Both the position numbers and the translations under genes were made by a program. A stretch of 52,545 nt of DNA from a virus. Lineage: Duplodnaviria; Caudoviricetes. Positions 1 to 41,407 of the stretch are shown one piece after another. The stretch covers positions 1 to 52,545 of IMG/VR virus record IMGVR_UViG_3300005825_000043; one strand, 5' to 3'. Position 1 is the first letter of the stretch; the number at the start of each line of letters is the position of its first letter. Below the pieces are notes generated by a model. It saw only the letters and a list, made by a program, of their open reading frames with translations. It was not told where the DNA came from and did no database searches.

Positions 1-136
1 CCTCGTCCTTTTCGATGTCTATCAGCGACAGGGGCAACCATACGGCGTTGCTCTCCTCGCCATCATCGGAAACCAGCACAGCGCGCTCGGTCCTATGGTG
101 TACATGTAATTCCAAGTCAATCAGTTCATTGCTCAT
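1..136 (-). CDS. Small phage protein, truncated by the window edge (MSNELIDLELHVHHRTERAVLVSDDGEESNAVWLPLSLIDIEKDE...)
   Basis: Own translation from ATG at 136, open to position 1; overlaps stop of upstream gene; T-x-RA-V/I-L and W-x-P-x-S pattern shared with 43708..43938. Confidence 0.7.
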   Translation of the reverse strand, partial: MSNELIDLELHVHHRTERAVLVSDDGEESNAVWLPLSLIDIEKDE

Positions 137-794
137 TTTCTGCTCTCTCTCGAATAGCCTGCATGATCTCAATTACAACCGGCCAAGGGACGTCTACAAT
201 AATTTCTGGAGCATTTATACCATGTGACCCATGTACGCAGAAACCCGTTCTTGTTTTGAAGCGACCACTATACGTCTTGCGAGTGTCTTCACTTGGCGTC
301 AGCGCCTCGACATAACGGTCGATGGGCGTGGCTTTCAAAATGCGTAGACCCGAAAGAAACTTCTCGGCGTAACTATAAAATTTATTCCTTACGCCATTCA
401 GCTCTGCGTCCCAAACGCGCCCTATCTTATTGTCATAGAGCCACTGGGCAACGTATTCCAATGCAGGATCAATTGTTTTCGCCTTTTTCTTATTGTTCTT
501 CAGCTCTTCTATTATTATTTGTATATCCTTACGATACTTGTCCTTAATATGATCCCCTGTTCTAGCCCAATCATCTTTCATCATCGAATAAAACAACTCA
601 GCGGCACATAATTCTACGAGTTCTTCCAAACTCGTGTCAGTTTCCGACCATTTTTTATATTTCTTTATTACAGGGTTCATAATGTTATAATACTTATATT
701 TTATTGTATTATCTGCACTGTCCCAACATTGGCCATTCATGATTATATAAAGTCGCCGTGACGCCATCTCTAATTCTGGGTATTCAATTTTCAT
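126..794 (-). CDS. Hypothetical protein
   Basis: 222-aa ORF tightly coupled in a leftward operon. Confidence 0.7.
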   Translation of the reverse strand: MKIEYPELEMASRRLYIIMNGQCWDSADNTIKYKYYNIMNPVIKKYKKWSETDTSLEELVELCAAELFYSMMKDDWARTGDHIKDKYRKDIQIIIEELKNNKKKAKTIDPALEYVAQWLYDNKIGRVWDAELNGVRNKFYSYAEKFLSGLRILKATPIDRYVEALTPSEDTRKTYSGRFKTRTGFCVHGSHGINAPEIIVDVPWPVVIEIMQAIRERAENEQ

Positions 795-1104
795 CTTTTC
801 TCTCCATTTTCCGCTGTTGATTAATTTCCGGTGGCACCGGCTCTATGTGATCCGGGTTCACACACATGCTGAAGTGACATAGGTGGTCGCGATGGTATCC
901 CGGTGGACATGACTTCTTCCCTATCACGTCACATGCGAACCGGTGCGCCCGCACGGTCCTCTTGCCCAGGTGAAAGGACCCATACCATTTCCTGTTTCCC
1001 TTCCCCCGCGATCGTCCTCCTGTCCAGAACCAACATCCGTTCGGCAACTTGTCGACCTTTGACATAAACCGTTTGATATCGGCTTCTGTTGCATACAGCA
1101 TCAT
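784..1104 (-). CDS. HNH endonuclease
   Basis: CWFWTG...YG...RAHR...DHLC....CVNPDHIE pattern typical of phage HNH nucleases. Confidence 0.85.
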   Translation of the reverse strand: MMLYATEADIKRFMSKVDKLPNGCWFWTGGRSRGKGNRKWYGSFHLGKRTVRAHRFACDVIGKKSCPPGYHRDHLCHFSMCVNPDHIEPVPPEINQQRKMERKDEN

Positions 1105-1337
1105 GCATCACTCGTAATGTGCAACAGCGACACGACCACCATTCCGCCGATCGTGTACGCCTCGGGTTCTCGGAGCCACATCAACACTTTGGCTATAGTG
1201 CTGTAGTCCGGCACCTCCCCTTTTTCAATGCGACACAGCGTCGATGGGCTTATCCCCATCTCCTCGGCAGCCTTGCGCAGGGAGTAGTGCTTTTTTTGTC
1301 TGGTGTTATGTAGCGCTTCTCCCAGTTCCTGCATCAT
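1101..1337 (-). CDS. XRE/Cro-family helix-turn-helix regulator
   Basis: LHNTRQKKHYSLRKAAEEMGISPSTLCRIEKGEVP; start at 1337 gives ATGA overlap with upstream stop. Confidence 0.85.
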   Translation of the reverse strand: MMQELGEALHNTRQKKHYSLRKAAEEMGISPSTLCRIEKGEVPDYSTIAKVLMWLREPEAYTIGGMVVVSLLHITSDA

Positions 1338-1591
1338 AATCTCCCCGTGATCTTGTCGCCCCAATGAAACGGCGGCGGTGCGCCCCACCTTGCTTCGTAG
1401 GATACTCGAATGTCGTCGTAAGACTCTTTCAGCTCTCCGAGACTGATGAGCTTGTGCTCGTACGCGAAGCGCAACCGCAGCAGGTGCAACACGTAGGAGT
1501 GCGCCGCGAGGGCACATGATTTCCCACCTCGGCGGGAGGCGAACGCTATCGACGTCACTTTGTGCGGTTTGAAATTATTCAGTAATTTCAC
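1334..1591 (-). CDS. Hypothetical protein
   Basis: 85-aa ORF with overlapping start/stop on both sides. Confidence 0.6.
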   Translation of the reverse strand: MKLLNNFKPHKVTSIAFASRRGGKSCALAAHSYVLHLLRLRFAYEHKLISLGELKESYDDIRVSYEARWGAPPPFHWGDKITGRL

Positions 1592-2280
1592 TTCGTGTCT
1601 CCTAATATCTCTTTCCTCAGCCGATAGTAGCTCGATTTGCTGATTTGGAAGTAGCCCCTCAAATCCTCAAAGGATTTGTCCGTCAATATCGCCGCCCTTA
1701 TTCGATCCATCGCTGCGGGCGGCATCATGTCTTTGCGCAAGCGCCGCTCCATCGCTTCATACTTTTCAGCCTGCATCTTTTTCAACACGTGCGCGGGCGG
1801 TAATGGCTGCAGTTTAGAAGTGATGTCCGAGTAATTCCTCCCGGACCTTACGTGCGCCACCGTTGATTTGCCGATCCCAATGGACTTGGCTATCACCATC
1901 TTCGGCCATCCTTTGCACAGCATCTCCCAGATCTTGATCACTTCTTTTTCGGTCAACGGTGCACCGGGTTTCCGTATCACGTCCTCCTGCCAGTTTATAA
2001 CCCGCCATTCTATGTGGTTTGGGTTCATGCACCGGTCGAATGGATTGATGCATTTCATACAAGCCCTGTGATGCTCCGGGAATTGTCCTGTTACCCGTTC
2101 ACACATGTAATCGCGGGCATCAACCTCCCTATCCGAAACAAGGGCTATAACCGGGCCAGTCCTTTTTTTAGACCACGGCCAAACAAAACACTCGTTACCT
2201 ATAATGTCTCGGCTGTCTAAAGCCCAGTGCAACCAATCCACTGGATCTATTTCCTTGTAGTCCCCACTTAACTCGTACAT
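1588..2280 (-). CDS. HNH-like protein with C-terminal HTH domain(s)
   Basis: CFVWPW...C..C...RCMNPNHIEW followed by LTEKEVIKI...IAKSIGIGKSTVAHVRSGRNY. Confidence 0.65.
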   Translation of the reverse strand: MYELSGDYKEIDPVDWLHWALDSRDIIGNECFVWPWSKKRTGPVIALVSDREVDARDYMCERVTGQFPEHHRACMKCINPFDRCMNPNHIEWRVINWQEDVIRKPGAPLTEKEVIKIWEMLCKGWPKMVIAKSIGIGKSTVAHVRSGRNYSDITSKLQPLPPAHVLKKMQAEKYEAMERRLRKDMMPPAAMDRIRAAILTDKSFEDLRGYFQISKSSYYRLRKEILGDTK

Positions 2281-2328
2281 GTTGGCGTCTCACCCGAATA
2301 AATGACAAGGCACCAGCGCCTCATCTAT

Positions 2329-2357
2329 AGTATAGCACAGGGACGAGGCGCTGTCTA
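2329..2357 (-). promoter_or_regulatory. Sigma70-type promoter for the leftward operon
   Basis: Minus strand TAGACA-N17-TATACT with TGn extension; -10 flanked by inverted repeat CAGCGCCTC/GAGGCGCTG. Confidence 0.65.
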
Positions 2358-2422
2358 TGTTGATTTATGAGCCATGGTGCAGTGCACTTGTAGACGTACT
2401 ACAGCATATCTACGAATAAGTG

Positions 2423-2777
2423 CTCTAGAGTATGTCCAGAGACAGTTTCCATGTGCTGCATAGTATCTCAAAAATATAGTTTCTCCGTCCCTTATAGTAT
2501 CTCTTAGGCCAGCACGGTTTCCGACGACCATGTACCCTAGATACCACAGGTATGGTGACTCGGAGAGGTCATTACTCTGGCACACGTACCGGTTGCATGA
2601 CATAGTCCGAAGTTGTACCCTCTGGCAATGAGGTCCGGGAGTCGGTATACCTGTGGCGAGAGGGTAGGCTCGTAATCGGAAATGGTGCTGGCCTAAGAGA
2701 TACTATAGAGCACGGGGAAACGGGGGGTCTGAGATAGTATGCGGGAGGGTGGAAACGAAGGGGGAGATACTATAAAG
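2423..2777. repeat. Long imperfect inverted repeat centred at ~2600
   Basis: Perfect 23-bp arms 2493-2515 and 2685-2707; further symmetric arms 2544-2553/2647-2656, 2458-2470/2730-2742, 2423-2437/2763-2777. Confidence 0.9.
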
Positions 2778-3123
2778 GAACGAAGGGGTTAGCGAGGGCA
2801 AGGGCGCAGGAGCGGCGGAGGGACGCGGCGTAGAGGGGATTCAGTGGCCGAATAGAGGACAGTACAAAGTCCATAGTATCTTATCTCTAGGACTATATAT
2901 ACCAAGGTGGAGAGAGGGGGATACAACTTGCGAAAGCATTACAAAAAGAATCCTACGTTAGTATTACCGCCAGACCCCCCCGTAGCTACCTTGGGAGACG
3001 CGGCCCTAGACATAGGATACTGTGGACCTTGCTCTCTGTGTGCACTGCAGCAATTACATGCCCTCTGGAAACGCTCTCTTCATTCGGGTGTCCCCGTGTC
3101 CTTGATTCCCTCTCTCCTCTTCA

Positions 3124-3247
3124 TTCGGCTATTCCGCGACGGAGGAAACTCGCTCCCTGTCCCCTTTGGCTATTCCGCGACGGGCCATTTCGGTATTCCG
3201 CGACGTCCCTTCGGTATTCCGCGACGTAATTTCGGTATTCCGCGACG
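3124..3247 (+). repeat. Direct repeat array A1 (TTCGGTATTCCGCGACG x5, last three at 21-bp period)
   Basis: Seen directly in sequence. Confidence 0.9.
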
Positions 3248-3259
3248 CATTGTAATCGT

Positions 3260-3446
3260 GCCACATTGTTGCCACAATGCCACGTTACAGGCTTGCCACA
3301 TGTTACCCGGCTGCAACATTGTTGCCACAATGCCACGTTACAAGTTTGCCACATGTTACCAGCGTAACACACTGTTACCCGGCTGCAACACCATGTTACC
3401 CGGCTGCAATATTGCATATAAGTTACGTTACCAGCCAGACACATTG
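3260..3446 (+). repeat. Degenerate repeat array B1 (GCCAC..GTTACCCGG units)
   Basis: Multiple GCCAC and GTTAC(CCGG) units immediately after array A1. Confidence 0.8.
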
Positions 3447-3509
3447 TGTCCCTGTTATCACATTTCCGTGCTCCCATGGTTGCGGGCGCACCTGTGTGGC
3501 GCGCCCTCC

Positions 3510-3525
3510 TGTTTCACGTGGAACG
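3510..3525. promoter_or_regulatory. parS-like site TGTTTCACGTGGAACG
   Basis: 15/16 match to bacterial chromosomal parS consensus TGTTYCACGTGRAACA. Confidence 0.75.
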
Positions 3526-3530
3526 TTTCC

Positions 3531-3743
3531 TCATCGCCATGGAATTATTGGCCCGGTTGTGCCTTCTGGCACTGCAACCATAGTTCCGCTGTCGCACTGG
3601 CCTGCTTCTTCGATGGCCCACAGCACGTCGTCCTCGTCCAGCTGCAGCAGCATAGCGGCCTCGGAAACGTCCGCCCCCGTGCGGGTTATTCGGATTTCCT
3701 CCTCCCCGGAGGCATTCCATACGTCGTAAATGTCGAACGTCAT
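3531..3743 (-). CDS. Small early protein, YDI/V-x-N...WAI-x-E...CD family (paralog 1)
   Basis: MTFDIYDVWN...DDVLWAIEEAGQCD; aligns with 7150..7356 and 7682..7882; ATGA-coupled to upstream ORF. Confidence 0.8.
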   Translation of the reverse strand: MTFDIYDVWNASGEEEIRITRTGADVSEAAMLLQLDEDDVLWAIEEAGQCDSGTMVAVPEGTTGPIIPWR

Positions 3744-3856
3744 TTTGCAACTCCTTCGGGTATCGGCTTCGTTAGTTCGGCGATTGTAGCATCGAGCCGC
3801 TTCAACTGGGCCTTGATTGTGGCCATCGTCTTCTTCCACTCGCGGTCGTTTTCCAT
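3740..3856 (-). CDS. Small coiled-coil early protein (38 aa)
   Basis: AGGAGA RBS and promoter upstream; MENDREWKKTMATIKAQLKRLDATIAEL... Confidence 0.7.
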   Translation of the reverse strand: MENDREWKKTMATIKAQLKRLDATIAELTKPIPEGVAK

Positions 3857-3881
3857 TTGCCCTGTCTCCTTATTACTCCTC

Positions 3882-3986
3882 ATTCTACCATGGCGGATTG
3901 CCCATGTCAATATGTGTTGTATGCATGGCGATATGCACGGAATGCATGGCTGGAGGGTTGACACGGCAATCCGGATGTGGTAAGAT
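3882..3986. promoter_or_regulatory. Divergent promoter pair with central GCAT-N6-ATGC element (cassette 1)
   Basis: Minus TTGACA-N17-TAGAAT (3882-3910); plus TTGACA-N17-TAAGAT (3958-3986). Confidence 0.85.
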
Positions 3987-3992
3987 GGGGGC

Positions 3993-4036
3993 ACGGTCCA
4001 ATGAAGCGAAGCGAGGACCCGGAGTCCAACTATGCC
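3993..4036 (+). ncRNA. Putative small RNA 5' motif, copy 1
   Basis: ACGGTCC-loop-GGACCCGGAGTCCAAC starting 7 nt after a -10 box; no RBS/ORF follows. Confidence 0.5.
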
Positions 4037-4065
4037 CGTGTAACCGAGTCCAGACGTAGCAATGC

Positions 4066-4215
4066 GTGTAATTACACATGTGCGCTGACACCATGGAAGA
4101 ATGCGTGTTGGGACACTCGTGTAATTACACGCATTCGCTACAGCGATCACGGGGAAAGACATCCGGCGTCCCAGTGCAACGGCACCGATGTAAACATGCG
4201 TGTAATTACACGCAT
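4066..4215. repeat. Three GTGTAATTACAC palindromes (4066, 4119, 4200)
   Basis: Perfect 12-bp palindrome; extends to a perfect 20-bp palindrome at 4196-4215. Confidence 0.85.
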
Positions 4216-4226
4216 TTGAAGATTAA

Positions 4227-4260
4227 GGCATAGTTGGACTCCGGGTCCTCGTTGGACCGT
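4227..4260 (-). ncRNA. Putative small RNA 5' motif, copy 2
   Basis: Minus ACGGTCC-AACGA-GGACCCGGAGTCCAACTATGCC just downstream of a perfect TTGACA/TATAAT promoter. Confidence 0.5.
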
Positions 4261-4266
4261 ACGCGT

Positions 4267-4382
4267 ATTATACCATATAAGCGCTGGGCTGTCAATATCG
4301 TGAGCCATGCGTCGGACGCATGGCGGTATGCACGAGACACATACTTATGGCGCTTGACAGGGGGGTTTGGGTGTGGTAGAAT
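4267..4382. promoter_or_regulatory. Divergent promoter pair (cassette 2)
   Basis: Minus TTGACA-N17-TATAAT (4267-4295); plus TTGACA-N17-TAGAAT (4354-4382). Confidence 0.85.
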
Positions 4383-4432
4383 AGGAACAGATCGGAGGGC
4401 AGGGTGCCACCGACAAACAGGAGACTAGGAAC

Positions 4433-5182
4433 ATGAACATCCATCACGCAACCGCCAAAAAGGCAGAAGCAAATGGCGTCATCCTCACTGTGGAAGCGGG
4501 CGACGTGATCCGGGCACACTGGGTGGAAGGCAACCGGGTTCTCATCGGCAACGATCCGAAGCAGGTTCTGGCTGATATGCTCGTCATCAAGATGGCCGCG
4601 ATCGAATATCCGGCGATCAACATCGTCGCCGTGGCGATCGGCGAGTTCCAAGCCCAGATCGGTGAGGAAGTCGTGGCGGAAGCCAAAGACGCGCAGACGA
4701 CACTGGCTCTCGCTCTAGAATATGCCGAAGAGAACGACATCGACCCCGAGGAAGGGGCGGAGGAAGCGGACGAAGAGCGCCGTAACGTTGTAGTCCCGGA
4801 GCGCTACAAGGAGGAATATAAGGCACGCGGCAACGCCAATCACTGCGGCGACTGGCTTGCAATCACGCTGGATGGCAAGTTCATCGTGACAACCGAAGGT
4901 GGTCCCCAGTTCGACGTGGACGGCTTCCGGAGATGCCTCGCGGCAAACGGCGTCGACATGACCGGCAAGTGGGCCGGTCTCCCGGAAAGTGGCCAGCGCG
5001 GATGGCAGGGCCGGTATCGGATGAACGGGCGGCAGAAACTCGAAATCCGGGTTGCAGAGACCGGCGAGCTGAAACTGGGAAATACCACCCTCAAGGCTCC
5101 GCTGGAAGCACTGGACGCGATGTGGGAGCGCCACCCGGAAGCAGCCCTCAAATATGCGGAGGCCCACGAAGAAGCAGCCTGA
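4433..5182 (+). CDS. Acidic early protein; C-terminal domain paralogous to 47936..48367
   Basis: 249 aa, RBS, own promoter, GC3-rich codons. Confidence 0.9.
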   Translation: MNIHHATAKKAEANGVILTVEAGDVIRAHWVEGNRVLIGNDPKQVLADMLVIKMAAIEYPAINIVAVAIGEFQAQIGEEVVAEAKDAQTTLALALEYAEENDIDPEEGAEEADEERRNVVVPERYKEEYKARGNANHCGDWLAITLDGKFIVTTEGGPQFDVDGFRRCLAANGVDMTGKWAGLPESGQRGWQGRYRMNGRQKLEIRVAETGELKLGNTTLKAPLEALDAMWERHPEAALKYAEAHEEAA

Positions 5183-5205
5183 TCCGACTGAAGCCCAGCG
5201 CCCCC

Positions 5206-5221
5206 TGTTTCACGTGAAGCA
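5206..5221. promoter_or_regulatory. parS-like site TGTTTCACGTGAAGCA within a GC hairpin (5199-5228)
   Basis: 15/16 match to parS consensus. Confidence 0.75.
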
Positions 5222-5272
5222 GGGGGCGAAGGCGTATCTGGAAACCAGCCGGTACTCATTCGGGTATTCGGG

Positions 5273-5318
5273 CATCCCTCGCCTCCGGGTCCTAGGCGCT
5301 GGGCCATCTTTGAACCGT
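5273..5318 (-). ncRNA. Putative small RNA 5' motif, copy 3
   Basis: Minus ACGGTTC-19 nt-GGACCCGGAGGCGAGGGATG after a TATAAT box. Confidence 0.45.
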
Positions 5319-5324
5319 AACTCC

Positions 5325-5430
5325 ATTATACCACAGGGATCAACCCTTGTCAATATGTGTTGAGCGCATGGCGATATGCGTCGGACGCATGGCCGATCGA
5401 CTTGACAGGAAGCGCTGGGCATGGTACAAT
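5325..5430. promoter_or_regulatory. Divergent promoter pair (cassette 3)
   Basis: Minus TTGACA-N17-TATAAT (5325-5353); plus TTGACA-N17-TACAAT (5402-5430). Confidence 0.85.
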
Positions 5431-5460
5431 AAGTAATCGATCAAGCAGGAGGACTAAGCA

Positions 5461-5721
5461 ATGACGTCAGTAGCAACCGCAGTGTACCACGTCAAGTTGA
5501 ATCGCCAACGTGTATACATCATCACTGAATTGGACGAATCAGCAGTGCGGGATTGGTGCAACCAGGAATTCGGTTCTAAATGGCTGCATAATCGCCTGCC
5601 CCTGGATGGGTTCGGCATAGTGGACGTGCTGGTACAACTTGGGAATGTGCCATTCGTGGGCTTCAAGCCAACTCAGATCGTGGTGCTTGCGGATGGCACA
5701 GTGATCAAGCTCAAGGCGTAG
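5461..5721 (+). CDS. Small early hypothetical protein
   Basis: AGGAGG RBS, promoter upstream, GC hairpin downstream. Confidence 0.8.
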   Translation: MTSVATAVYHVKLNRQRVYIITELDESAVRDWCNQEFGSKWLHNRLPLDGFGIVDVLVQLGNVPFVGFKPTQIVVLADGTVIKLKA

Positions 5722-5776
5722 GATCAAGGGGGCGCTGGACGCGCCCCCACCACCAATCAAGCAGGAGACTAGAGTA

Positions 5777-5968
5777 ATGGAAAGCCTGACGCAAAAGATC
5801 AAAATCGCCGGTCGTCGAGTCGCTCCCACTCTGAGGAAAGGCGACCCAGCTAAGTGGGCTGCTTATCAGCGCCTCACCAACTACGAGCAGCGACTGAAAT
5901 GGCGTAAGGCCGTGGGTCATGCTGAATATTGCCGCCTTAGTCGCCTTGCATTTCACGGTTTCTTATAA
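5777..5968 (+). CDS. Small basic early hypothetical protein
   Basis: AGGAGA RBS in the shared ATCAAGCAGGAG leader. Confidence 0.7.
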   Translation: MESLTQKIKIAGRRVAPTLRKGDPAKWAAYQRLTNYEQRLKWRKAVGHAEYCRLSRLAFHGFL

Positions 5969-5987
5969 GCTTCAGCCCGTCGCGGAT

Positions 5988-6066
5988 TTTGGTATTCCGC
6001 GACGGGCATTCGGTATTCCGCGACGGGATTTCGGTATTCCGCGACGGGATTTCGGTATTCCGCGAT
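5988..6066 (+). repeat. Direct repeat array A2 (TTCGGTATTCCGCGACG x4, 21-bp period)
   Basis: Same unit as 3124-3247. Confidence 0.9.
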
Positions 6067-6070
6067 GCAG

Positions 6071-6225
6071 CGGAGCAACAATGTTACTCGGAAGCCACAT
6101 TGTTACCCGGAAGCCACGTTACCCGGGAGCAACAATGTTACCCGGAAGCCACGTTACCCGGAAGCCACGTTACCCGGAAGCCACATTGTGATCCGGAAGC
6201 CACATTGTGATCCGGAAGCCACACC
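6071..6225 (+). repeat. Tandem repeat array B2 (GTTACCCGGAAGCCAC-type, 18/21-bp units)
   Basis: About 8 units seen directly. Confidence 0.9.
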
Positions 6226-6253
6226 ACCGAGGGAGGGCGATCCAACATCCCCA

Positions 6254-6282
6254 AGCATAGCACGTCGGGACGCCGGTGTCAA
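6254..6282 (-). promoter_or_regulatory. Leftward promoter firing into repeat arrays B2/A2
   Basis: Minus TTGACA-N17-TATGCT; GCAT-N6-ATGC element at 6295-6308. Confidence 0.6.
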
Positions 6283-6432
6283 TACTCCCCGGACGCATGG
6301 CGGTATGCGTCGGACGCATGGCTCCGGGTACAATCCGGAGTTGCATATGCGAACCCCCCACAACCGAGCGAAGCGCGCAGCTCCCGGTTGCGCGCATTGG
6401 CGGCGTACAACCGGCTTCCGATCGCGCCCATG

Positions 6433-6460
6433 GTTGGACTCCGGGTCCTCGTTGGACCGT
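6433..6460 (-). ncRNA. Putative small RNA 5' motif, copy 4
   Basis: Identical 28-mer to copy 2; downstream ~100 nt (6335-6432) closely resembles 6860-6960. Confidence 0.5.
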
Positions 6461-6466
6461 AGGAAA

Positions 6467-6572
6467 ATCGTACCACATCCGGCTTCCCGAGTCAATACTC
6501 CCCGGATGCATGGCGATATGCGTCCCGTGCATGGTTTCTGGGGTTGCGTCGGCGATCCGGATGTGGTACAAT
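6467..6572. promoter_or_regulatory. Divergent promoter pair (cassette 4)
   Basis: Minus TTGACT-N17-TACGAT; plus TTGCGT-N17-TACAAT with TGTGG before -10. Confidence 0.75.
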
Positions 6573-6603
6573 GGGACATAGATCGAGAGCAGGAGATACG
6601 GAC

Positions 6604-6822
6604 ATGCAGAACGGATACATAGCGATGGCGATCCATACGAATTCCGACGGTAGCGGCAACCCCGGCGTGGAATATGGATGGGGTGCAACCGAACAGGCCG
6701 CTACCGATCGCCTATGGGAGCGCCTACGGGGGCAGGCATCCGAAATGTCCGACGACGAGGCCGAGATCGCGGCGCTCGTGGCGGAGTGGGAATTCGTCTG
6801 GGCGCTCCCGTTCGAGCAGTAG
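6604..6822 (+). CDS. Small acidic early protein
   Basis: GATCGAGAGCAGGAGA leader; MQNGYIAMAIHTN...WEFVWALPFEQ. Confidence 0.8.
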   Translation: MQNGYIAMAIHTNSDGSGNPGVEYGWGATEQAATDRLWERLRGQASEMSDDEAEIAALVAEWEFVWALPFEQ

Positions 6823-6838
6823 GAGCCATCCGGGGCGG

Positions 6839-6854
6839 TGTTCCACGTGGAACA
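6839..6854. promoter_or_regulatory. Perfect parS site TGTTCCACGTGGAACA at the centre of a perfect 36-bp palindrome (6829-6864)
   Basis: 16/16 match to parS consensus. Confidence 0.85.
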
Positions 6855-6960
6855 CCGCCCCGGAGTTGCATATGCGAACCCCCATACAACCGAGTGCAAC
6901 CCGTACACCCGGAATTGCATGCATGTTCGTGTCTACAACCGGCTTCCGATCGCGCCCATG

Positions 6961-6990
6961 GTTGGACTCCGGGTCCGCCCGCTGGACCGT
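6961..6990 (-). ncRNA. Putative small RNA 5' motif, copy 5
   Basis: Minus ACGGTCC-AGCGGGC-GGACCCGGAGTCCAAC. Confidence 0.5.
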
Positions 6991-6996
6991 AGGAAA

Positions 6997-7102
6997 AGTA
7001 TACCACATCCGGCTTCTCGGCGCAATCCCCGGAGCCATGCACGGAACGCATATCGCCATGCGTCGGAAACAGGTTGACACGGGCGTCCCGGCGTGGTAGG
7101 AT
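6997..7102. promoter_or_regulatory. Divergent promoter pair (cassette 5)
   Basis: Minus TTGCGC-N17-TATACT; plus TTGACA-N17-TAGGAT. Confidence 0.8.
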
Positions 7103-7149
7103 GGGGTATCGATCGGGGATGGCCCGATCGGGCATCGGGAGACACGGAC

Positions 7150-7356
7150 ATGCAGCGATACGATATCTACAACCAGGACGGGCAGACCATCCGGATGCGG
7201 GGCGTAGGCATCCGCACCGCCGCGCGGATCGCGGCCATCGATCCGGACGACATCCGATGGGCGATCGACGAGGAGGCCCGATGCGATGGCGCGGGCATCG
7301 TGGTCGTGGAGGCCGGGGATCCCGCGCCCGGCGTATGGGACGGCCTCCCCGGATAG
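7150..7356 (+). CDS. Small early protein, YDIYNQDG family (paralog 2)
   Basis: GGAGA RBS; MQRYDIYNQDG...DPDDIRWAIDEEARCD...VEAGDPAPG. Confidence 0.85.
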   Translation: MQRYDIYNQDGQTIRMRGVGIRTAARIAAIDPDDIRWAIDEEARCDGAGIVVVEAGDPAPGVWDGLPG

Positions 7357-7398
7357 CCCGGACGCGCGGCGGGGGGCCATCCCCCGCCCCATCCCCCC

Positions 7399-7414
7399 TG
7401 TTCCACGTGGAACA
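7399..7414. promoter_or_regulatory. Perfect parS site TGTTCCACGTGGAACA
   Basis: 16/16 match; not embedded in a longer stem. Confidence 0.85.
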
Positions 7415-7466
7415 CGCCCCGAAATTGTGGGCATTTTCGTGTCTACAACCGTGGTCGAAATCGGCC

Positions 7467-7512
7467 CATCCCTCGCCTCCGGGTCCTCTTGCTTGCGCCG
7501 TCCTTGGACCGT
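7467..7512 (-). ncRNA. Putative small RNA 5' motif, copy 6
   Basis: Minus ACGGTCC-19 nt-GGACCCGGAGGCGAGGGATG. Confidence 0.5.
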
Positions 7513-7518
7513 ATAAAA

Positions 7519-7634
7519 AGTATACCACGCCCGGATTCCCGTGTCAAGCCCAGAGGCCATGCGTTTCGTGCATGGCGGTATGCATTCCGTGCATGGCCTC
7601 CGGGCTTGACGCGGCGATCCCGGCATGGTATAAT
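7519..7634. promoter_or_regulatory. Divergent promoter pair (cassette 6)
   Basis: Minus TTGACA-N17-TATACT; plus TTGACG-N17-TATAAT. Confidence 0.85.
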
Positions 7635-7681
7635 CGGGGATGATCGGGGATCGGCCCGATCGGGGATCAGGAGCTAGGGAC

Positions 7682-7882
7682 ATGCAGGCATACGATATCT
7701 ACAACCAGGACGGGCGTACGGCGATCGCGCGGGGCATCGGGATCGATCGGGCGGCGGCGATCGCCGGGATCGATCCGGAGGACATCGGATGGGCCATCGA
7801 CGAGGCCGGACGATGCGATACCGATACGCATACGATCGTGGAGGCGGGGGATCCCGCCCCCGGCCCGATGCCGGCCCCGTAG
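7682..7882 (+). CDS. Small early protein, YDIYNQDG family (paralog 3)
   Basis: AGGAG RBS; MQAYDIYNQDG...DPEDIGWAIDEAGRCD...VEAGDPAPG. Confidence 0.85.
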   Translation: MQAYDIYNQDGRTAIARGIGIDRAAAIAGIDPEDIGWAIDEAGRCDTDTHTIVEAGDPAPGPMPAP

Positions 7883-8036
7883 GCATCCGGGGCGCGCGGG
7901 GGGGCCATCCCGGCCCCCCGCCATCCGGATGGTGTTTTCGCGTTTTCGCGTTTTCGCGTTTTGCATTTTCGATCACAGTTGTAGACACGAAAACACATAC
8001 AATTCCGGGACGCGCTGGGCGCGTCCCGATGCCGTC

Positions 8037-8318
8037 CTAGATCGCGCCCAGCGCGATGCGATCCAATATCGGGACCACATCCCAATGGGTATCCGGATGC
8101 GCGTGCACTCCGTCGCCCGATACCACCAGAGACGGCGATCCATGCCGGGTATCGTACGGATGCCACAACTGCCAGTGTTCGTCCGACCACCCGGCACACG
8201 CTAGGATCAGCGTGGGCGCATGTCCCCATATCGCCTCCGCCGCCATAGCTGCCCGGCGTGCGGTGCGCGCCATCTGGTCCGTATCGGGGGTGTCGATGGT
8301 CTGGATCGTATTCGTCAT
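8037..8318 (-). CDS. Small early hypothetical protein (93 aa)
   Basis: Shared GATCGAGAGCAGGAGA leader and promoter on minus strand; MTNTIQTIDTPDT... Confidence 0.8.
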   Translation of the reverse strand: MTNTIQTIDTPDTDQMARTARRAAMAAEAIWGHAPTLILACAGWSDEHWQLWHPYDTRHGSPSLVVSGDGVHAHPDTHWDVVPILDRIALGAI

Positions 8319-8349
8319 GTCCGTGTCTCCTGCTCTCGATCTATGCTCC

Positions 8350-8455
8350 ATTGTACCACGGCAGACCGCCCGTGTCAAGCCCGGAAGCCATGCACGGGAT
8401 GCATATCGCCATGCGTTCGACGCATATTGACGCGGGCGATCCGGCATGGTATAAT
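8350..8455. promoter_or_regulatory. Divergent promoter pair (cassette 7; both arms drive ORFs)
   Basis: Minus TTGACA-N17-TACAAT; plus TTGACG-N17-TATAAT. Confidence 0.85.
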
Positions 8456-8500
8456 CGGGGATAGATCGGGGATGGCCCGATCCGATCAGGAGATACCGAC

Positions 8501-8740
8501 ATGCAGACCGCTCCCAACACAACCGTCGCGCGCATCCGGGCCCTAAACGCGGAAGTTGCAGACCGGGCGCTATATATATCCCAGGCGGATAACGGCACGT
8601 GGGGCGTGTGCGACCGCTCCCAGCGCAACTCGGACGGGTATGTGATCCCGCGCCGCATCCGGGGCGCATCCGGATACCCGACGCTCCGGGAGGCCGGGGA
8701 GGCCGCCCGCACGCTATACGCCGCCCGCGCCCCCCGGTAG
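8501..8740 (+). CDS. Small basic early hypothetical protein
   Basis: AGGAGA RBS and promoter. Confidence 0.8.
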   Translation: MQTAPNTTVARIRALNAEVADRALYISQADNGTWGVCDRSQRNSDGYVIPRRIRGASGYPTLREAGEAARTLYAARAPR

Positions 8741-8826
8741 GGGGCGCATGCCGCCCGCGCGCGGGGATGGCCTCCCCGCGCCGGGACGGGCGCATGGCGG
8801 GTGCTGGGCGCGCCCCCCGCCAGAGG

Positions 8827-8924
8827 GCGCAAGCAAGATGCAAATGCAAGAGCACAAGCAAGATGCAAATGCAAGAGCGCAAGCAAGATGCAAGAGCGCA
8901 AGCAAGATGCAAATGCAAGAGCAC
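8827..8924 (+). repeat. Tandem GCAAG/GCAAAT-rich repeat (GCGCAAGCAAGATGCAAATGCAAGA x~4)
   Basis: Seen directly, just upstream of promoter 8938-8966. Confidence 0.85.
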
Positions 8925-8937
8925 ATGGCCCATGGAC

Positions 8938-8966
8938 TTGACAAGGCAAGCGTGCTATGGTACAAT
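8938..8966 (+). promoter_or_regulatory. Sigma70-type promoter
   Basis: TTGACA-N17-TACAAT with TGG before -10. Confidence 0.85.
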
Positions 8967-8997
8967 GGGGCATAGATCGAGAGCAGGAGACACCGAA

Positions 8998-9258
8998 ATG
9001 CAGAACACGGACCACGCCAACAACGTAGCAACCATCGTCCTCGGAATTGTAGTCGCCATCGCACTGGTCGTGGCGGGTGGCTTTCTTGGGGCGCTGATCA
9101 GCAAAGGCGATCCCGATACGAAATGGGAATTCGGGATCGAATACGAAGGGACTGCGGCGATCCTCGATTACGACCTGTCGTGGGAAGACTGCGTCGCCCT
9201 CTGGGCCGGTTCCGACGATGGTGTGTTCTGCCGGGTCGCACAGTTCGAGGTGGAATAG
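8998..9258 (+). CDS. Small single-pass membrane protein
   Basis: Shared leader; hydrophobic IVLGIVVAIALVVAGGFLGALI. Confidence 0.8.
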   Translation: MQNTDHANNVATIVLGIVVAIALVVAGGFLGALISKGDPDTKWEFGIEYEGTAAILDYDLSWEDCVALWAGSDDGVFCRVAQFEVE

Positions 9259-9302
9259 AGCATCGGGGGGCGCATTGTGCCCCCCTACTCTGCGGTCGAT
9301 AT

Positions 9303-9352
9303 GTGTAATTACACGCATCCGAAAACGTATATACCAATATGTGTAATTACAC
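9303..9352. repeat. Two GTGTAATTACAC palindromes (9303, 9341)
   Basis: Same motif as 4066-4215. Confidence 0.85.
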
Positions 9353-9447
9353 GCATTCGCTACTGCATTATTTAATACACCAAAGCATTATTCCAGCTAT
9401 ACTTATAGCAAATACAAATTCACTCCACCCGATGATGTCGAGGACAT

Positions 9448-9678
9448 TCATTCGGGTATCCCTTCATCAAGCGTTTTTGCAAGCATACGTATTAGTTGCA
9501 CTTTTTCATTTACCCCACGGGCCAAAGGGTCCTTGATTTTCTCCATACGATTGGCTATATCATATAGATATTTCTGCACGTCTATGATACCATTCAGTCT
9601 CCCTTCTTTTCGAGCTTCTTCGATCAGTTTGTGAAAGTTCGTCTTATCCTCAACTTTTTCGCGATTTGTTACTGGCAT
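9448..9678 (-). CDS. Hypothetical protein
   Basis: Last of four coupled leftward ORFs. Confidence 0.65.
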   Translation of the reverse strand: MPVTNREKVEDKTNFHKLIEEARKEGRLNGIIDVQKYLYDIANRMEKIKDPLARGVNEKVQLIRMLAKTLDEGIPE

Positions 9679-10259: not shown

Positions 10260-10690
10260 GGGAATTCTGAAGTAGGTAGATCACTTTCAGTGAAGTCATT
10301 GCTGCTGACAACAATTACTTCAGTAGGTCTATGTGCATAATGTGGCACTTTACCTTGCTCTTGTAGAGCTTGGGCGGCAGACAGTGAACTCTCGGAGATG
10401 ATCCATTCCTCGAAAAAACTGTCGCCGTACCATGGACGAAGGATTGGACCAAATTTGTCGAAACAATATTGTAGGACGACTTGAAATTTAGCATCACTGA
10501 TGATGAAGGTTTTAGCGAAATAGCCTTTTCCTTCGGTTGCGTCGAACCCGTGAGAAATCGAGTACACTTTCAGCAGCCTAAGGCGCTGGGCTAGTGTTCT
10601 TTTTGCCCGTTCATGAGATAGGCATTCAGCTTCAGTAGTAAATTCTTTACCATCATCAGCCACATACACGTTCTTGGTAACGGTCTTCAT
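10238..10690 (-). CDS. Hypothetical protein
   Basis: AGGAGA RBS; early-type promoter TTGTGT-N17-TACAAT at 10718-10746. Confidence 0.8.
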   Translation of the reverse strand: MKTVTKNVYVADDGKEFTTEAECLSHERAKRTLAQRLRLLKVYSISHGFDATEGKGYFAKTFIISDAKFQVVLQYCFDKFGPILRPWYGDSFFEEWIISESSLSAAQALQEQGKVPHYAHRPTEVIVVSSNDFTESDLPTSEFPWPRKKD

Positions 10691-10825
10691 TTATTTGTCT
10701 CCTGTATTCGATTGTTCATTGTACCACATCTGAGCCGCTGACACAATAGTACTTTATACCACATACGTGCGCGCGAGTGGAAACGGGACTTCCCACCGCC
10801 CTCCGCCTGTGCTATACTGCAGGGT

Positions 10826-11332
10826 ATGGAGCATGACTGGTTCATATTAAGGGTCCTATCAGGACAAGATGAAAGCGTTGAGGAAGCGCTGAGAACGCGT
10901 GGCTACAACGTTTATATGCCTTATTTGATTGAGTCACGACGTCATCGAAGACACAAGTGTTTGATAAATAGAGCAGTTCCATTATTTCCAGGGTATTTAT
11001 TTGTATCATTGAATGCACATGGGAACTGGAGAGACCTAAACAGCGTCCGTGGAGTGCTTGGGCCGATAAAATCACAAGGTGATCCTGCATTGATAGAAAG
11101 TGCAGAAATCGAGCAAATAATGGAAGCAGAAGCGCTAGGGCGTTTTGAAAATACAAGAACGGTCCGAATGGGCTTTAAAGTGGGCGACAAAGTATCCTTC
11201 GAGGCATTCGGGGCTGTAGTAACAGCATTCGTGAAGTCTTTCGTAGGAAAGAGTGGTTTCGAGGTATCTGGAGAAGCTGGAATGGGGCATTTCAGTGCTA
11301 CGAAATCATTCGATGAGTTAATTCCAGCATAG
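10826..11332 (+). CDS. NusG/RfaH-family transcription antitermination factor
   Basis: WFILRV.SGQD...L...G..VY.P...PLFPGYLFV...VRGV NGN domain; FKVGDKV KOW-like motif. Confidence 0.85.
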   Translation: MEHDWFILRVLSGQDESVEEALRTRGYNVYMPYLIESRRHRRHKCLINRAVPLFPGYLFVSLNAHGNWRDLNSVRGVLGPIKSQGDPALIESAEIEQIMEAEALGRFENTRTVRMGFKVGDKVSFEAFGAVVTAFVKSFVGKSGFEVSGEAGMGHFSATKSFDELIPA

Positions 11333-11429
11333 AACCTGTTCTGAGCGGGGGCGACAGCTTTCCGACGGGGTTCATGGCACAAGGAAGTATCCTTGAGTGC
11401 CACGCATGCTTGTATAGGAGTTTTCCGAT

Positions 11430-11930
11430 ATGTCAGAAAGCACTCAGGAGGCATTCGAAGAGCGTTTCGCTGCTCTCAGAATACCCGAAGAATATGTCGG
11501 ATATGATTTCAAGACATGTCTGACGGCTATCGACAACATCGGGCCATATTTCAAAGAGGATGTCATTGCGGCGATCTACCATTCGCGCGGACATCTCGGC
11601 GAGATGGCTTATTTGCTTAATAGAAACAGGGCGCGGGTTCGCGATTATGTTTTTGCCAACCGAGACGTCAAAGAAGTATTCGATAATATCCGAGAGACTT
11701 CTGTCGACTATATCGAAAGGTCCCACATGACTGCTGCATTGATGGGAGACGCACAAGCGGAGCGTTTCACATTGACCACGTTGGGCAAGGGGCGCGGTTA
11801 TACCACCCGAGTTGAGGCCACAGGCGAGGATGGTGGAGCTATTAGGTTTCAAGAGGTGGTCCGGAAAATTGTCGATCCTGTTGTACCTCCTTCGGATGAG
11901 GATAGTGCAGCCGATGAGGGCACCGATTAG
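11430..11930 (+). CDS. terS: Probable terminase small subunit
   Basis: Directly before terL; HTH-like segment and LGKGRGY..R.E.TG.DGG motif. Confidence 0.7.
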   Translation: MSESTQEAFEERFAALRIPEEYVGYDFKTCLTAIDNIGPYFKEDVIAAIYHSRGHLGEMAYLLNRNRARVRDYVFANRDVKEVFDNIRETSVDYIERSHMTAALMGDAQAERFTLTTLGKGRGYTTRVEATGEDGGAIRFQEVVRKIVDPVVPPSDEDSAADEGTD

Positions 11931-13201
11931 TGGCTGAGCAGGTACTTAGGCTCGAAATTGAGACTCCTAGAGTTTTCGTACCTGCACTGCAGCCGTCCAG
12001 ATATAAGGCCATCCATGGCGGCAGAGGCTCCGGGAAATCTCACTTTTTTGCTGAGAGGTTAGTTGAAAGAGTAGCATTTGAGGGTATTTCTGCAGTCTGT
12101 ATTCGTGAGTATCAGAAATCTCTTGACCAGTCAGTTAAGCGCCTATTGGAATTTAAGATCAGGGCGCTGGGCTTGCAGTCTTATTTTAAGATTTATGAAA
12201 ATAGGATCGAGTCAATAACTGGTGGTTTGATAATATTTCAGGGCATGCAGTCTCATAATGCTGAAACTATCAAGTCTCTGGAGGGGTTTGATGTAGCATG
12301 GGTGGAAGAGGCACAGAGCCTTTCCCAGCATTCTCTTAGTCTCCTTCGTCCTACTATTCGCAAGCCCAATTCTGAAATCTGGTTCTCTTGGAACCCGGAT
12401 AAAAAGAGCGATCCTGTCGATGCACTGTTCAGGGGTGGCACTCCCCCCATTGGTACTATTCTCATAGAAGTGAATTATTACGATAACCCATGGTTCCCGG
12501 ACGTACTCAGGGAAGAAATGGAATACGATAAGAAAAGGGACCATGCGAATTACCTTCATGTTTGGATGGGCAAGTACCACAGTGTCTCTGAGGCATTAGT
12601 ATTTAAGAATTGGAAGATACAAGAATTCGAGGCACCAGAGGGTGTAAGGCTTCTATTTGGTGGTGACTGGGGTTTCTCTAAAGATCCGTCTGTTCTTGTT
12701 CGCTCTTTCATCGAAGATAGGCAACTGTTTATAGATTATGAAGCGTACAAGATTGGATGTGAGATTGATTATCTGCCCGCATTATTTGCTGGGTCAGACA
12801 CCAAGAAGCCGAGGCGCTGGCAAAATCCATTCGGTTTTCCGGGTGTCCCCGGTGCCGCTGTTTGGCCAATAGTAGCGGACAGTGCTCGCCCTGAAACTAT
12901 TAAATACATGCGTATGCGCGGTTTCGATATAAGGAAGGCTATCAAGGGCGCTAGGTCCGTGGAAGAGGGTGTTGAATTTCTTCGTTCTTATGACATAATA
13001 GTCCACCCACGTTGCACGAACACTATTTATGAGTTGGAGAATTATTCTCACAAGATAGACAAGATGACGGAAGAGATCCTACCTACTCTTGAGGACAAGG
13101 ATAATCACGTCATTGATGCCCTGAGATACAGTGCCGAAGGTGTAAGAAGGGCTACGAGGCATCAACAGATGTCTGGACCAATAGTTATTGGCAGGAACTG
13201 A
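11930..13201 (+). CDS. terL: Terminase large subunit (PBSX family)
   Basis: GGRGSGKS Walker A, AWVEEA Walker B, DWGF and NHVIDALRY nuclease motifs. Confidence 0.95.
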   Translation: MAEQVLRLEIETPRVFVPALQPSRYKAIHGGRGSGKSHFFAERLVERVAFEGISAVCIREYQKSLDQSVKRLLEFKIRALGLQSYFKIYENRIESITGGLIIFQGMQSHNAETIKSLEGFDVAWVEEAQSLSQHSLSLLRPTIRKPNSEIWFSWNPDKKSDPVDALFRGGTPPIGTILIEVNYYDNPWFPDVLREEMEYDKKRDHANYLHVWMGKYHSVSEALVFKNWKIQEFEAPEGVRLLFGGDWGFSKDPSVLVRSFIEDRQLFIDYEAYKIGCEIDYLPALFAGSDTKKPRRWQNPFGFPGVPGAAVWPIVADSARPETIKYMRMRGFDIRKAIKGARSVEEGVEFLRSYDIIVHPRCTNTIYELENYSHKIDKMTEEILPTLEDKDNHVIDALRYSAEGVRRATRHQQMSGPIVIGRN

Positions 13202-13233
13202 TATCACACTAAACTCGGAGAAGGAATACAGTC

Positions 13234-13659
13234 ATGGCAACTTATACTAAATACGAGAGTTGGGCCGAATACCTTGCTGACAAGCAAATCGATGCATTCG
13301 GCACAACCGATACGTTCAAGGCTGCCATTCATTCGGATGCTCCCGTTGTTGCGACCGACGATGCGCTGGCCGACTTGACGCAGATCACAGGCACCGGCTA
13401 CACGGCTGGTGGTGAAGACATTCAAAACGATGCCACTCGCGCTGGCGGCACAGTGACAATGACCGCCGTTGACGTGGTGTGGACGGCATCGGCTGCGGAT
13501 TGGGTCGCTGGTCGTTATGTTTCGATTTATGACGATACACCGACAACGCCAGTCGCTGATCCGTTGATGTGTTCATTCGACTATGGCAGCAACTTCACGG
13601 TTGGAGATGGCGAGACTTTCACGCTTGATTTTGGCGCTAGTCTTAATACTCTGGCGTAA
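13234..13659 (+). CDS. Probable virion structural protein
   Basis: Beta-rich Thr/Ala/Gly composition (GYTAGG, VVWTAS, FTLDF) in late operon. Confidence 0.7.
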   Translation: MATYTKYESWAEYLADKQIDAFGTTDTFKAAIHSDAPVVATDDALADLTQITGTGYTAGGEDIQNDATRAGGTVTMTAVDVVWTASAADWVAGRYVSIYDDTPTTPVADPLMCSFDYGSNFTVGDGETFTLDFGASLNTLA

Positions 13660-13695
13660 TTCTCAACACTATGGTATAATCCACCAATATAAGGA

Positions 13696-14124
13696 TTGGC
13701 TGATATGAGTACCAGAATTCTCGCTTGTCACCGCATTCCGCTGTCGAAAATCATGCACAAGGATGAATTTCGGTCCAAGTACAAGTATATAGAGCAGCAG
13801 GAGCAAAACCAGAAGATCGCCTCGTGTTGCCGCCACCCCGAGAACGGTGAGATCGAGGCGTGGAAGTCAAGCGAGAAAGAGCAAGTGCCGGATATCTATG
13901 TCCTGCATTGTACCTGTGGCCGTAAGCACCAGAAGTTCTGTGTCGGTATTGAAGATAAGCGCCCGGTCTGGACTGCAGATGGCACGTTGATGTGCGTTAC
14001 AGTTTACGATTCTATTAAGCGGAAGGCATTGGAGGAAAGTGCAGCGAGGCTTGCCAACCTGACACCGGAGCAAAAAGCGAAGATGCAGCGCAAGCAGGTG
14101 CAAGGTGATAGAGGCGCTCAATAA
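13696..14124 (+). CDS. Hypothetical Cys/His-containing protein
   Basis: CCRH...HCTCGRKH..FC; TGGTATAAT box upstream at 13672-13680. Confidence 0.6.
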   Translation: MADMSTRILACHRIPLSKIMHKDEFRSKYKYIEQQEQNQKIASCCRHPENGEIEAWKSSEKEQVPDIYVLHCTCGRKHQKFCVGIEDKRPVWTADGTLMCVTVYDSIKRKALEESAARLANLTPEQKAKMQRKQVQGDRGAQ

Positions 14125-14127
14125 GTT

Positions 14128-17352: not shown

Positions 17353-17363
17353 GGTAATAGAAT

Positions 17364-17702
17364 ATGGCAACCGATTTTGAAATGTTCTCAGGCGACAACA
17401 AAATTCTGTCAGTATCGGTTGTCGATAGCGCTGGCGTTGCTGTTGACCTGACTAGTGCCACGGCGAGTTGGCAATTGGCACGCTCTAATGATGCCGCGCC
17501 GCTTATCCAAAAGGCTACTGGTGGAAGTGGCATCGTCATCACGGATGCTGCCGGAGGTGTCCTAGAAATTACTTTGAGTGCGTCTGACACTGACGCCCTC
17601 AAAGGCAGTTTCTATCATGAACTTCAAGTCATCGATACCAGTGGAAATATCGCCACAGTGTTGGCAGGAAATGCCACCATCAAGAGAGACCTGATAACAT
17701 AG
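17364..17702 (+). CDS. Ig-like/BppU-like virion protein
   Basis: GD...L...V.D..G.AVDLT.A...G...ITL...DT..L.G..YHELQV pattern. Confidence 0.65.
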   Translation: MATDFEMFSGDNKILSVSVVDSAGVAVDLTSATASWQLARSNDAAPLIQKATGGSGIVITDAAGGVLEITLSASDTDALKGSFYHELQVIDTSGNIATVLAGNATIKRDLIT

Positions 17703-17712
17703 GAATAATCCG

Positions 17713-18036
17713 ATGGCAACGGGTAATGGAGAAAACAGTCTGTTGCGCTTTTGGCCCGTCATCGCGTTCGTCCTGTTGTATGGCTTCTTAGGGATTGGCG
17801 GGTGGTACAGTGTAAAGCTTATGGGTGAGGCCAATGCCGAGGACGTCCGCGAGCTTAAGAACCGGGTAAAGGACAACGAAAACAAAGCGAACGAGTTGCT
17901 TCGTGGCGATGATAAGTTGTCTGCCAAGATCGAACTTGAAAGTACTAAGTTGCGTGGTGAGATAGAGCGCGCCAATCGTGCACAGAACCAGCAACTGGAC
18001 ACCATATTGCAATTGCTGCAGCGGCAACAGAACTAA
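17713..18036 (+). CDS. Membrane-anchored coiled-coil protein
   Basis: N-terminal TM segment then heptad-rich region. Confidence 0.7.
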   Translation: MATGNGENSLLRFWPVIAFVLLYGFLGIGGWYSVKLMGEANAEDVRELKNRVKDNENKANELLRGDDKLSAKIELESTKLRGEIERANRAQNQQLDTILQLLQRQQN

Positions 18037-18045
18037 AGGTATTGT

Positions 18046-41406: not shown

Positions 41407-41407
41407 A

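Follow-up and report, generated by a model that had tools for sequence, protein, structure and literature searches.

We analysed the DNA of a tailed virus, the entire IMG/VR virus record IMGVR_UViG_3300005825_000043 (52,545 bases; referred to below as the window), whose early region carries four short palindromes of the type of parS, the bacterial chromosomal centromere that is bound by ParB (Table 1). When the window was scanned with the consensus pattern TGTTYCACGTGRAACA at up to two mismatches, exactly four matches were obtained, two of them perfect and two with one mismatch, compared to 0.05 expected, and a count of four was reached in 0 of 100 dinucleotide-preserving shuffles. At up to three mismatches the count rose to seven, compared to 2.17 expected, with the addition of only three weak matches at chance level. 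All four sites fall within 3.9 kb and are thus clustered above chance, as expected of chromosomal-type parS, and the remaining 48 kb outside the cluster at 3510–7414 contain no comparable match at up to two mismatches. A preliminary description of this DNA, made from the letters alone, had reported parS sites at 3510, 5206, 6839, and 7399, each intergenic and within 45 bp after the stop codon of an early gene, and nothing similar in the rest of the DNA; our scan confirms both the sites and their isolation, and the measured distances past the stop codons are 5, 23, 16, and 42 bp, respectively.

The published chromosomal parS consensus, as quoted in excerpts of PMC3597684, is tGTTNCACGTGNAACa, with outer bases that are less conserved. 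The window sites fit this 16-bp palindrome, and the 14-bp core is perfect in three of the four. Site 1 follows the leftward gene 3531–3743 and is preceded by a GC hairpin, site 2 follows gene 4433–5182 and forms the top of a hairpin with a 13-bp stem at 5199–5228, site 3 follows gene 6604–6822 and forms the top of a hairpin with a 16-bp stem at 6829–6864, and site 4 follows gene 7150–7356 and has no extended hairpin; long stems therefore occur at sites 2 and 3 only. Each of these small early genes has a readable Shine–Dalgarno sequence. A T-run is absent at all four sites, a scan for intrinsic terminators called none of them, and the other terminator-like hairpins of the early region have stems that are unrelated to parS.

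The flanks of the four sites are unlike one another. Sites 3 and 4 are located in tandemly duplicated modules of ~530 bp, the inter-gene stretches of which align at 78% column identity, and because their 16-mers sit at non-homologous offsets in this alignment, simple duplication of a single spot does not account for the pair. Across ten sites from the window and the relatives described below, the 16-mer was the only sequence in common, which bears out the earlier remark that the flanks differ while the 16-mer is kept. Long hairpins were found at 2 of these ten sites, and the sites varied at consensus positions 1, 5, 12, 14, and 16, with position 2 altered in a single site that has two mismatches. 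Site 2 is unchanged in an independent metagenome contig of this phage (L281) that shows 3 differences in 1147 bases compared to window positions 4919–6065.

Table 1. Positions of the parS sites, early features, and replication genes in the window.
Feature	Position	Strand	Description
parS site 1	3510–3525		TGTTTCACGTGGAACG; 1 mismatch, at the outermost base; 14-bp core perfect
parS site 2	5206–5221		TGTTTCACGTGAAGCA; 1 core mismatch, at position 14
parS site 3	6839–6854		TGTTCCACGTGGAACA; 0 mismatches
parS site 4	7399–7414		TGTTCCACGTGGAACA; 0 mismatches
Small early gene	3531–3743	−	70 aa; motif ..AA..(I/L)D.(D/E)D(I/V).WA(I/L)(D/E)E.G.CD..
249-aa early protein	4433–5182	+	Widespread uncharacterised phage family
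72-aa early gene	6604–6822	+	Upstream of site 3; no family match in Pfam or PHROG
68-aa early gene	7150–7356	+	Upstream of site 4; paralogue of 3531–3743
Iteron arrays adjoining site 1	3124–3461		Repeats of TTCGGTATTCCGCGACG, then GTTACCCGG...CAAC-type repeats
Second copy of both iteron arrays	5986–6222		Between sites 2 and 3
Early control region	3882–8966		14 sigma-70-like promoters, seven per strand; 17-nt spacer, TG-extended −10
Helicase	39351–40904	−	
HD-domain dNTPase	40837–41433	−	
PRA-PH-like pyrophosphohydrolase	41408–41695	−	
PurZ	41906–43003	−	
Family A polymerase	43935–45770	−	DpoZ-like
Primase	49627–52032	−	

We searched the window for a protein that might act at these sites. Six-frame searches, in which the positive controls responded, found no ParB_N, HTH_ParB, AAA_31, or CbiA domain in its 52.5 kb, which contain neither a parAB operon to go with the sites nor the phage's own ParA and ParB of the plasmid-prophage (P1/N15) type. 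The statement in the preliminary description that no ParA or ParB is recognisable thus stands for a record that is linear, lacks end repeats, and is rated 68% complete by CheckV. ParB_N was likewise missing from the complete genome of the Ochrobactrum phage vB_OspP_OH (OH) and from three further records (G003, G007, and G008). The 249-aa protein encoded ahead of site 2 was considered as a hidden ParB; it had no match in Pfam or PHROG, and Foldseek returned none in the PDB at E ≤ 0.001. Its AlphaFold model is confident (pLDDT 92.6) and consists of two domains with a low-confidence linker between them. This protein has 106 homologues at E ≤ 0.001; it is also homologous to OH p04, with which it has the C-terminal domain in common.

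OH, the laboratory host of which is Ochrobactrum sp. POC9, is the nearest cultured relative of the window phage in the replication module (48% identity for PurZ, 42% for the polymerase, and 37% for the helicase), and its genome is complete at 41,227 bp. It carries TGTTTCACGTGGAACG, identical to window site 1, at 27–42 and 41199–41214, inside both of its annotated 55-bp terminal repeats and 6 bp past the stop codon of the leftmost, leftward gene p01. The OH site and window site 1 share a context in which repeats are followed by a GC hairpin, parS, and then the end of a leftward gene. The term parS occurs 0 times in the text of the OH paper (PMC7139368), the title of which calls the phage virulent.

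The preliminary description had suggested a scan of related phages for parS as a check. An alignment of 36 homologues of the 249-aa protein led to 23 IMG/VR loci and 57 metagenome loci, which represent 57 distinct relatives (461 kb) when the copy of the window phage itself is excluded. In addition to OH, 3 of the 57 carried parS at up to one mismatch, compared to 0.07 expected. These three (L253, L266, and L337) have one or two sites each, in matching intergenic places and with unrelated flanks. In L253, the same variant as window site 2 is flanked by a terminator hairpin and the next promoter of the extended −10 type. L266 has parS 8 bp after the stop codon of the small leftward gene's homologue, together with a second site, GTTTTCACGTGAAACA, which has two mismatches and is located in a 5′ leader between a promoter-like −10 element and the ribosome-binding site. 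In L337, parS lies 15 bp past the stop codon of the homologue of the 249-aa gene. Judged from these sequences, the putative parS feature is recurrent among relatives and is placed alike. A search for relatives by the 249-aa protein alone gave two pattern matches, neither of which was confirmed.

Among relatives collected by PurZ, one of five records (G003) had a parS-like site at up to one mismatch, a perfect TGTTTCACGTGAAACA inside a helicase-like coding region of a PurZ-bearing contig (G003:C1:19101–19116, equivalent to L126 1501–1516). We did not rely on this site. The structural-module relatives RDJL Phi 2, Pseudomonas phage RSP, and Rhizobium phage RHph_TM3_3_9 had 0 sites in the 3 records, and a megablast search of window positions 3000–9000 against the phage collection gave no match.

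Sites of this kind are found in IMG/VR well outside this lineage. At least 120 IMG/VR stretches contain perfect TGTTCCACGTGGAACA compared to 3 for a control with reversed letters, an excess of at least 40-fold, and at least 119 contain the site-1 variant compared to 3 for its own reversed control. At these loci, 149 of 228 sites fell within open frames of 100 codons or more, compared to 3847 of 4360 random positions, so the sites are enriched between genes without being confined there. Of the first 50 parS-bearing records, 2 had ParB_N, neither of them among the 7 that are rated at least 90% complete. Of 28 records chosen for having two or more parS-like sites in the retrieved stretch, among which 19 are at least 90% complete, none had it, which gives 2 of 78 parS-bearing records overall. 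A set of ~12-kb records, mostly of the inverted-terminal-repeat class, has two to three parS sites per repeat plus one internal site near 5–7.6 kb and no ParB_N (L153, L156, L164, L186, L202, L205, L206, L212, L222, L223, L231, L234, L235, L244, and L176). The annotated member of this set, L153, is phi29-like, with genes for a DNA polymerase, an upper collar connector, a major head protein, and an endolysin.

The virulent Bacillus phage phi29 is the closest known parallel. According to excerpts of PMC2731898, it has five parS sites, and the host protein Spo0J takes part in segregating its genome into the prespore. Used as a positive control, the phi29 genome (NC_011048) gave four perfect TGTTTCACGTGGAACA sites plus one core-intact site, and that variant differs from window site 1 by a single outer base; the sites are spread over 10445–18760 of 19282 bp, in the right half, and are mostly inside genes. 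Phi29 is classed as lytic and lacks its own ParB, as may also hold for the window phage, and it carries several copies of the host-consensus parS that are of the same quality as the window set. The two differ in that phi29 is a podovirus with a protein-primed 19-kb genome and a spore-forming host, whereas the window comes from a siphovirus of more than 52 kb with a PurZ/DpoZ Z-genome; in that the phi29 sites are mostly intragenic, whereas the four window sites are all intergenic and in the early region; and in that the role demonstrated for the phi29 sites is entrapment of the genome in the spore. Ochrobactrum, the host of the nearest cultured relative, does not form spores, and any benefit must therefore differ from that in phi29. 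Beyond phi29 and Nf (PMC2731898), our literature searches gave no report of a phage with host chromosomal parS, and none of a Gram-negative-host phage or a Z-genome phage with host parS.

The sites also resemble the chromosomal ParABS clusters near oriC of Caulobacter, Pseudomonas, and Bacillus, with which they share the 16-bp consensus, the presence of several sites within a few kb, and comparable variability at positions 5 and 12 and in the outer bases; they differ in having no adjacent parAB operon or any ParB and in being part of a virus. Use of the ParB of another replicon by a mobile element has a precedent in the genomic island SGI1, the parS sites of which hijack the ParABS system of IncC plasmids, as described in the excerpted text of PMC10954446; there, the ParB is that of a helper plasmid rather than chromosomal, and SGI1 is an integrative element rather than a phage. 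Centromere sites on phage DNA are also known from other systems. The plasmid prophages P1 and N15 encode their own ParA and ParB (SopA and SopB) and have their own centromere sequences, those of N15 being scattered over the genome. Both the Par genes and this centromere type are absent from the window.

The early region around the parS sites is made of diverged repeated modules. We infer that the iteron arrays, whose 17-mer has no exact match in IMG/VR, are an origin or a protein-binding array. A consensus promoter scan gave 15 promoter-like sites compared to 4.4 expected in shuffles, and the arrangement of the promoters indicates that the early region is a chain of short, often convergent transcription units. 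The parS sites are at the ends of these units, and none overlaps a promoter, the nearest strong promoter hexamers being ~100–140 bp away. The G+C content is 0.565–0.63 over positions 4001–8000 compared to 0.43–0.53 over 10001–52000, with positions 3000–9300 richer than the rest, a contrast consistent with the early module being of mosaic origin; among loci with the 249-aa family, values of 0.49 to 0.65 were seen. The family of the small gene 3531–3743 has paralogues in the window at 7150–7356 and 7682–7882 and homologues in OH (p02) and L266, as well as in L263, L315, and L330. We rejected the idea that this family is tied to parS, because the last three loci are free of sites.

Several other repeats were observed in and around this region. 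A palindrome based on GTGTAATTACAC, in its fullest form ATGCGTGTAATTACACGCAT, is present in five copies at 4061–4225 and 9303–9366, flanking the early region on both sides, and looks like an operator for a dimeric regulator. There is a perfect 25-nt inverted repeat at 4012–4036 and 4227–4251. An element of ~76 nt that contains GGTTGGACTCCGGGTCC occurs in three diverged copies (6380–6455, 6908–6983, and 7418–7493), each downstream of a leftward promoter and running toward a parS site or hairpin; these elements may be small leftward transcripts, and Rfam gave no match at E ≤ 0.1 over 2300–9600.

The early region is partly present in estuary RNA libraries (at most 0.40 of sampled words). Contigs assembled from three of these runs were mostly at least 99% alike, short, and of low depth, and demonstrated neither transcription nor transcript ends; several loose ends at 6838–6859 and 7399–7423 came from the DNA of other organisms that shares parS alone.

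Elsewhere, the window has genes for a large terminase, portal, major head protein, tape measure, and J-like tail fibre, which make up a siphovirus structural module, and for a lysozyme. A NusG-like gene at 10826–11332 on the plus strand (PF02357, E 1.2e-17), just upstream of the terminase and structural genes, may encode a phage antitermination or processivity factor for the late operon. The replication module at the right end (39351–52032, minus strand) holds a complete 2-aminoadenine (Z-genome) gene set, and with PurZ, DatZ-like, MazZ-like, and DpoZ-like genes present, every A of the parS sites should be 2-aminoadenine. At the left end (126–2280, minus strand), HNH or His-Me endonuclease-like genes were seen at 784–1104 and 1588–2280 and a gene for an XRE-type helix-turn-helix (HTH) protein at 1101–1517, and a 25-nt inverted repeat lies at 2500–2524 and 2676–2700. 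No tRNA genes were found in the window. Six-frame searches with responding positive controls found no tyrosine integrase or resolvase in it either, and this result, together with the virulent relative OH, makes the earlier designation of the phage as apparently lytic plausible; the designation is nevertheless unproven, the contig being incomplete and including the gene for the XRE-type HTH protein. The major head protein is nearest to those of the Roseobacter phages RDJL Phi 1 and 2 (54%), and a host-prediction scan of genome contigs returned only three contigs of metagenome-assembled genomes, with mixed taxonomy. From the nearest phages, our guess is that the host is an alphaproteobacterium.

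We put the probability at about one in two that the four sites are chromosomal-type parS kept by selection, at which host ParB loads and forms a partition complex through which phage genomes are positioned and inherited. This reading builds on what was observed, namely four clustered sites that are under selection and recur in relatives, with no ParB or ParA in the sequenced DNA, and the position of the sites beside iteron arrays, as centromeres lie beside origins, supports it. After infection, host ParB, a CTP-dependent clamp, would load at the four sites and spread over the neighbouring few kb, including the iteron arrays, to form a partition complex on the phage DNA. Through this complex, the ParA/ParB machinery of the host would be linked to the phage genomes, which it would position and pass on to daughter cells as if they were small chromosomes. 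The benefit would be greatest if the lytic cycle were delayed or had stalled, with the phage in a carrier or dormant state. By analogy, the strategy would be that of virulent phi29 in another phage lineage and probably in a Gram-negative host. The precedent of phi29 is already known; new here are the lineage, the DNA chemistry, the placement of the sites, and a host that is probably non-sporulating. The preliminary description had proposed that the phage recruits host ParB for segregation or tethering, for titration, or for coating of the early region. Recruitment as such is a reasonable interpretation that is indirectly supported by the parS consensus, its recurrence, OH, and the phi29 precedent, whereas the three purposes are inseparable by sequence.

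A number of points weigh against partition by host ParB. Binding of host ParB at the predicted sites, including binding to 2-aminoadenine DNA, and its spreading from them are deduced from the sequences, and segregation or positioning as the purpose is argued from analogy. The consensus tGTTNCACGTGNAACa comes from bacterial chromosomes and may not be the parS of this host. All A in the sites should be 2-aminoadenine, which ParB would have to accept; the motif is kept in three PurZ-bearing phages (the window phage, OH, and G003), a hint that ParB may accept Z-DNA. Sites 2 and 3 are strong hairpins at gene ends and could double as terminators. With the record at 68% completeness, a phage ParB could lie in the part that was not sampled. 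Moreover, 54 of the 57 relatives are free of sites in the sequence examined, which for many is a short fragment, so the feature is dispensable for the lineage. Finally, the spore entrapment of phi29 does not apply to a non-sporulating host, and the benefit proposed in its place is drawn by analogy.

The same binding could serve other ends. In one alternative, amplifying phage genomes would act as a sink that titrates host ParB away from the origin and thereby disturbs segregation, SMC loading, and, where the host possesses MipZ, the positioning of division. The case for ParB binding is shared with partition, there are four sites per genome in the first-expressed region, and the role of ParB in SMC loading is treated as established in the excerpted literature. 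Other phages encode early inhibitors of cell division. We nonetheless think a sink unlikely: OH has one unique site and the three site-bearing relatives have one or two, which would make a weak sink until late in infection; our literature searches gave no phage example of ParB titration; and phi29, the sole documented precedent, uses ParB for segregation in the published excerpts.

A second alternative, which we also regard as improbable, is that ParB is a borrowed regulator, its clamps coating 4–6 kb of the early region and damping or timing the strong promoters there. Promoter damping has been reported for KorB. Repression by ParB of promoters next to parS3 and parS4 in Pseudomonas aeruginosa is announced in the title of PMC5521831, all four window sites are within the region of 14 consensus promoters, and the GTTTTCACGTGAAACA site of L266 occupies an operator-like position. 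However, the distance of the window sites from the strong promoter hexamers does not favour such a role, the phage has operator-like repeats and HTH proteins of its own, and the OH site is in a terminal repeat beyond the last gene.

That the sites are look-alikes without any link to ParB, either operators for a phage protein or stems of bidirectional terminators, is quite unlikely in view of how exactly the consensus is matched, how the sites vary, the lack of T-tails, and the presence of the same 16-mer in unrelated phages, phi29 included. What speaks for it is that each site ends a transcription unit, that two lie in 13–16-bp stems, that the region is full of other repeats, and that the small gene family beside sites 1 and 4 could, from its helix-rich motif, bind DNA. 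Against this, the chance that a repeated palindrome fits a given 14-base consensus is about 1 in 4^7, the stems of the other hairpins are unrelated, sites 1 and 4 have no extended stem, none of the sites was called a terminator, and the small gene family is present in three relatives without parS.

It is very unlikely that the sites are the phage's own centromeres, with the phage being a plasmid-like prophage of the P1/N15 type whose ParAB pair is encoded in the third of its genome that was not sampled. The incomplete record, the iteron arrays, and the XRE-type HTH protein would accommodate such a pair; however, OH, whose genome is complete, has the site and no ParB_N, as do the 19 IMG/VR records of at least 90% completeness with two or more sites, and these genomes are what makes a ParB in the missing third improbable. 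In addition, the ParB proteins of plasmid prophages use centromeres of their own rather than the chromosomal consensus, and the window already has full structural, lysis, and replication modules. Least credible is a role at genome ends, in which ParB bound at a terminal parS would aid the processing, joining, or packaging of ends, much as IHF helps at lambda cos: the only site of OH lies 27 bp from each physical end within the 55-bp terminal repeat, the ~12-kb phi29-like records have two to three sites per inverted terminal repeat, and window site 1 shares the context of the OH site, but the three further window sites are spread over 4 kb and cannot all be termini, and the phi29 sites are internal.

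Partition by host ParB may extend beyond this phage. We regard as possible, though doubtful, the broader proposal that orphan host parS is a widespread and largely unrecognised phage strategy that reaches from phi29-like podoviruses to Gram-negative Z-genome phages, that virulent phages persist and are inherited as ParB-partitioned episomes in non-sporulating hosts, and that host ParB reads Z-DNA. The Z-genome setting raises the question of whether a sequence-specific clamp-loader site works when all of its A are 2-aminoadenine. If host ParB does load at these sites, then the chromosome-segregation machinery would be a common phage host factor well beyond Bacillus, and phages termed virulent would gain a gene-free route to plasmid-like inheritance, which would bear on carrier states and pseudolysogeny in nature.

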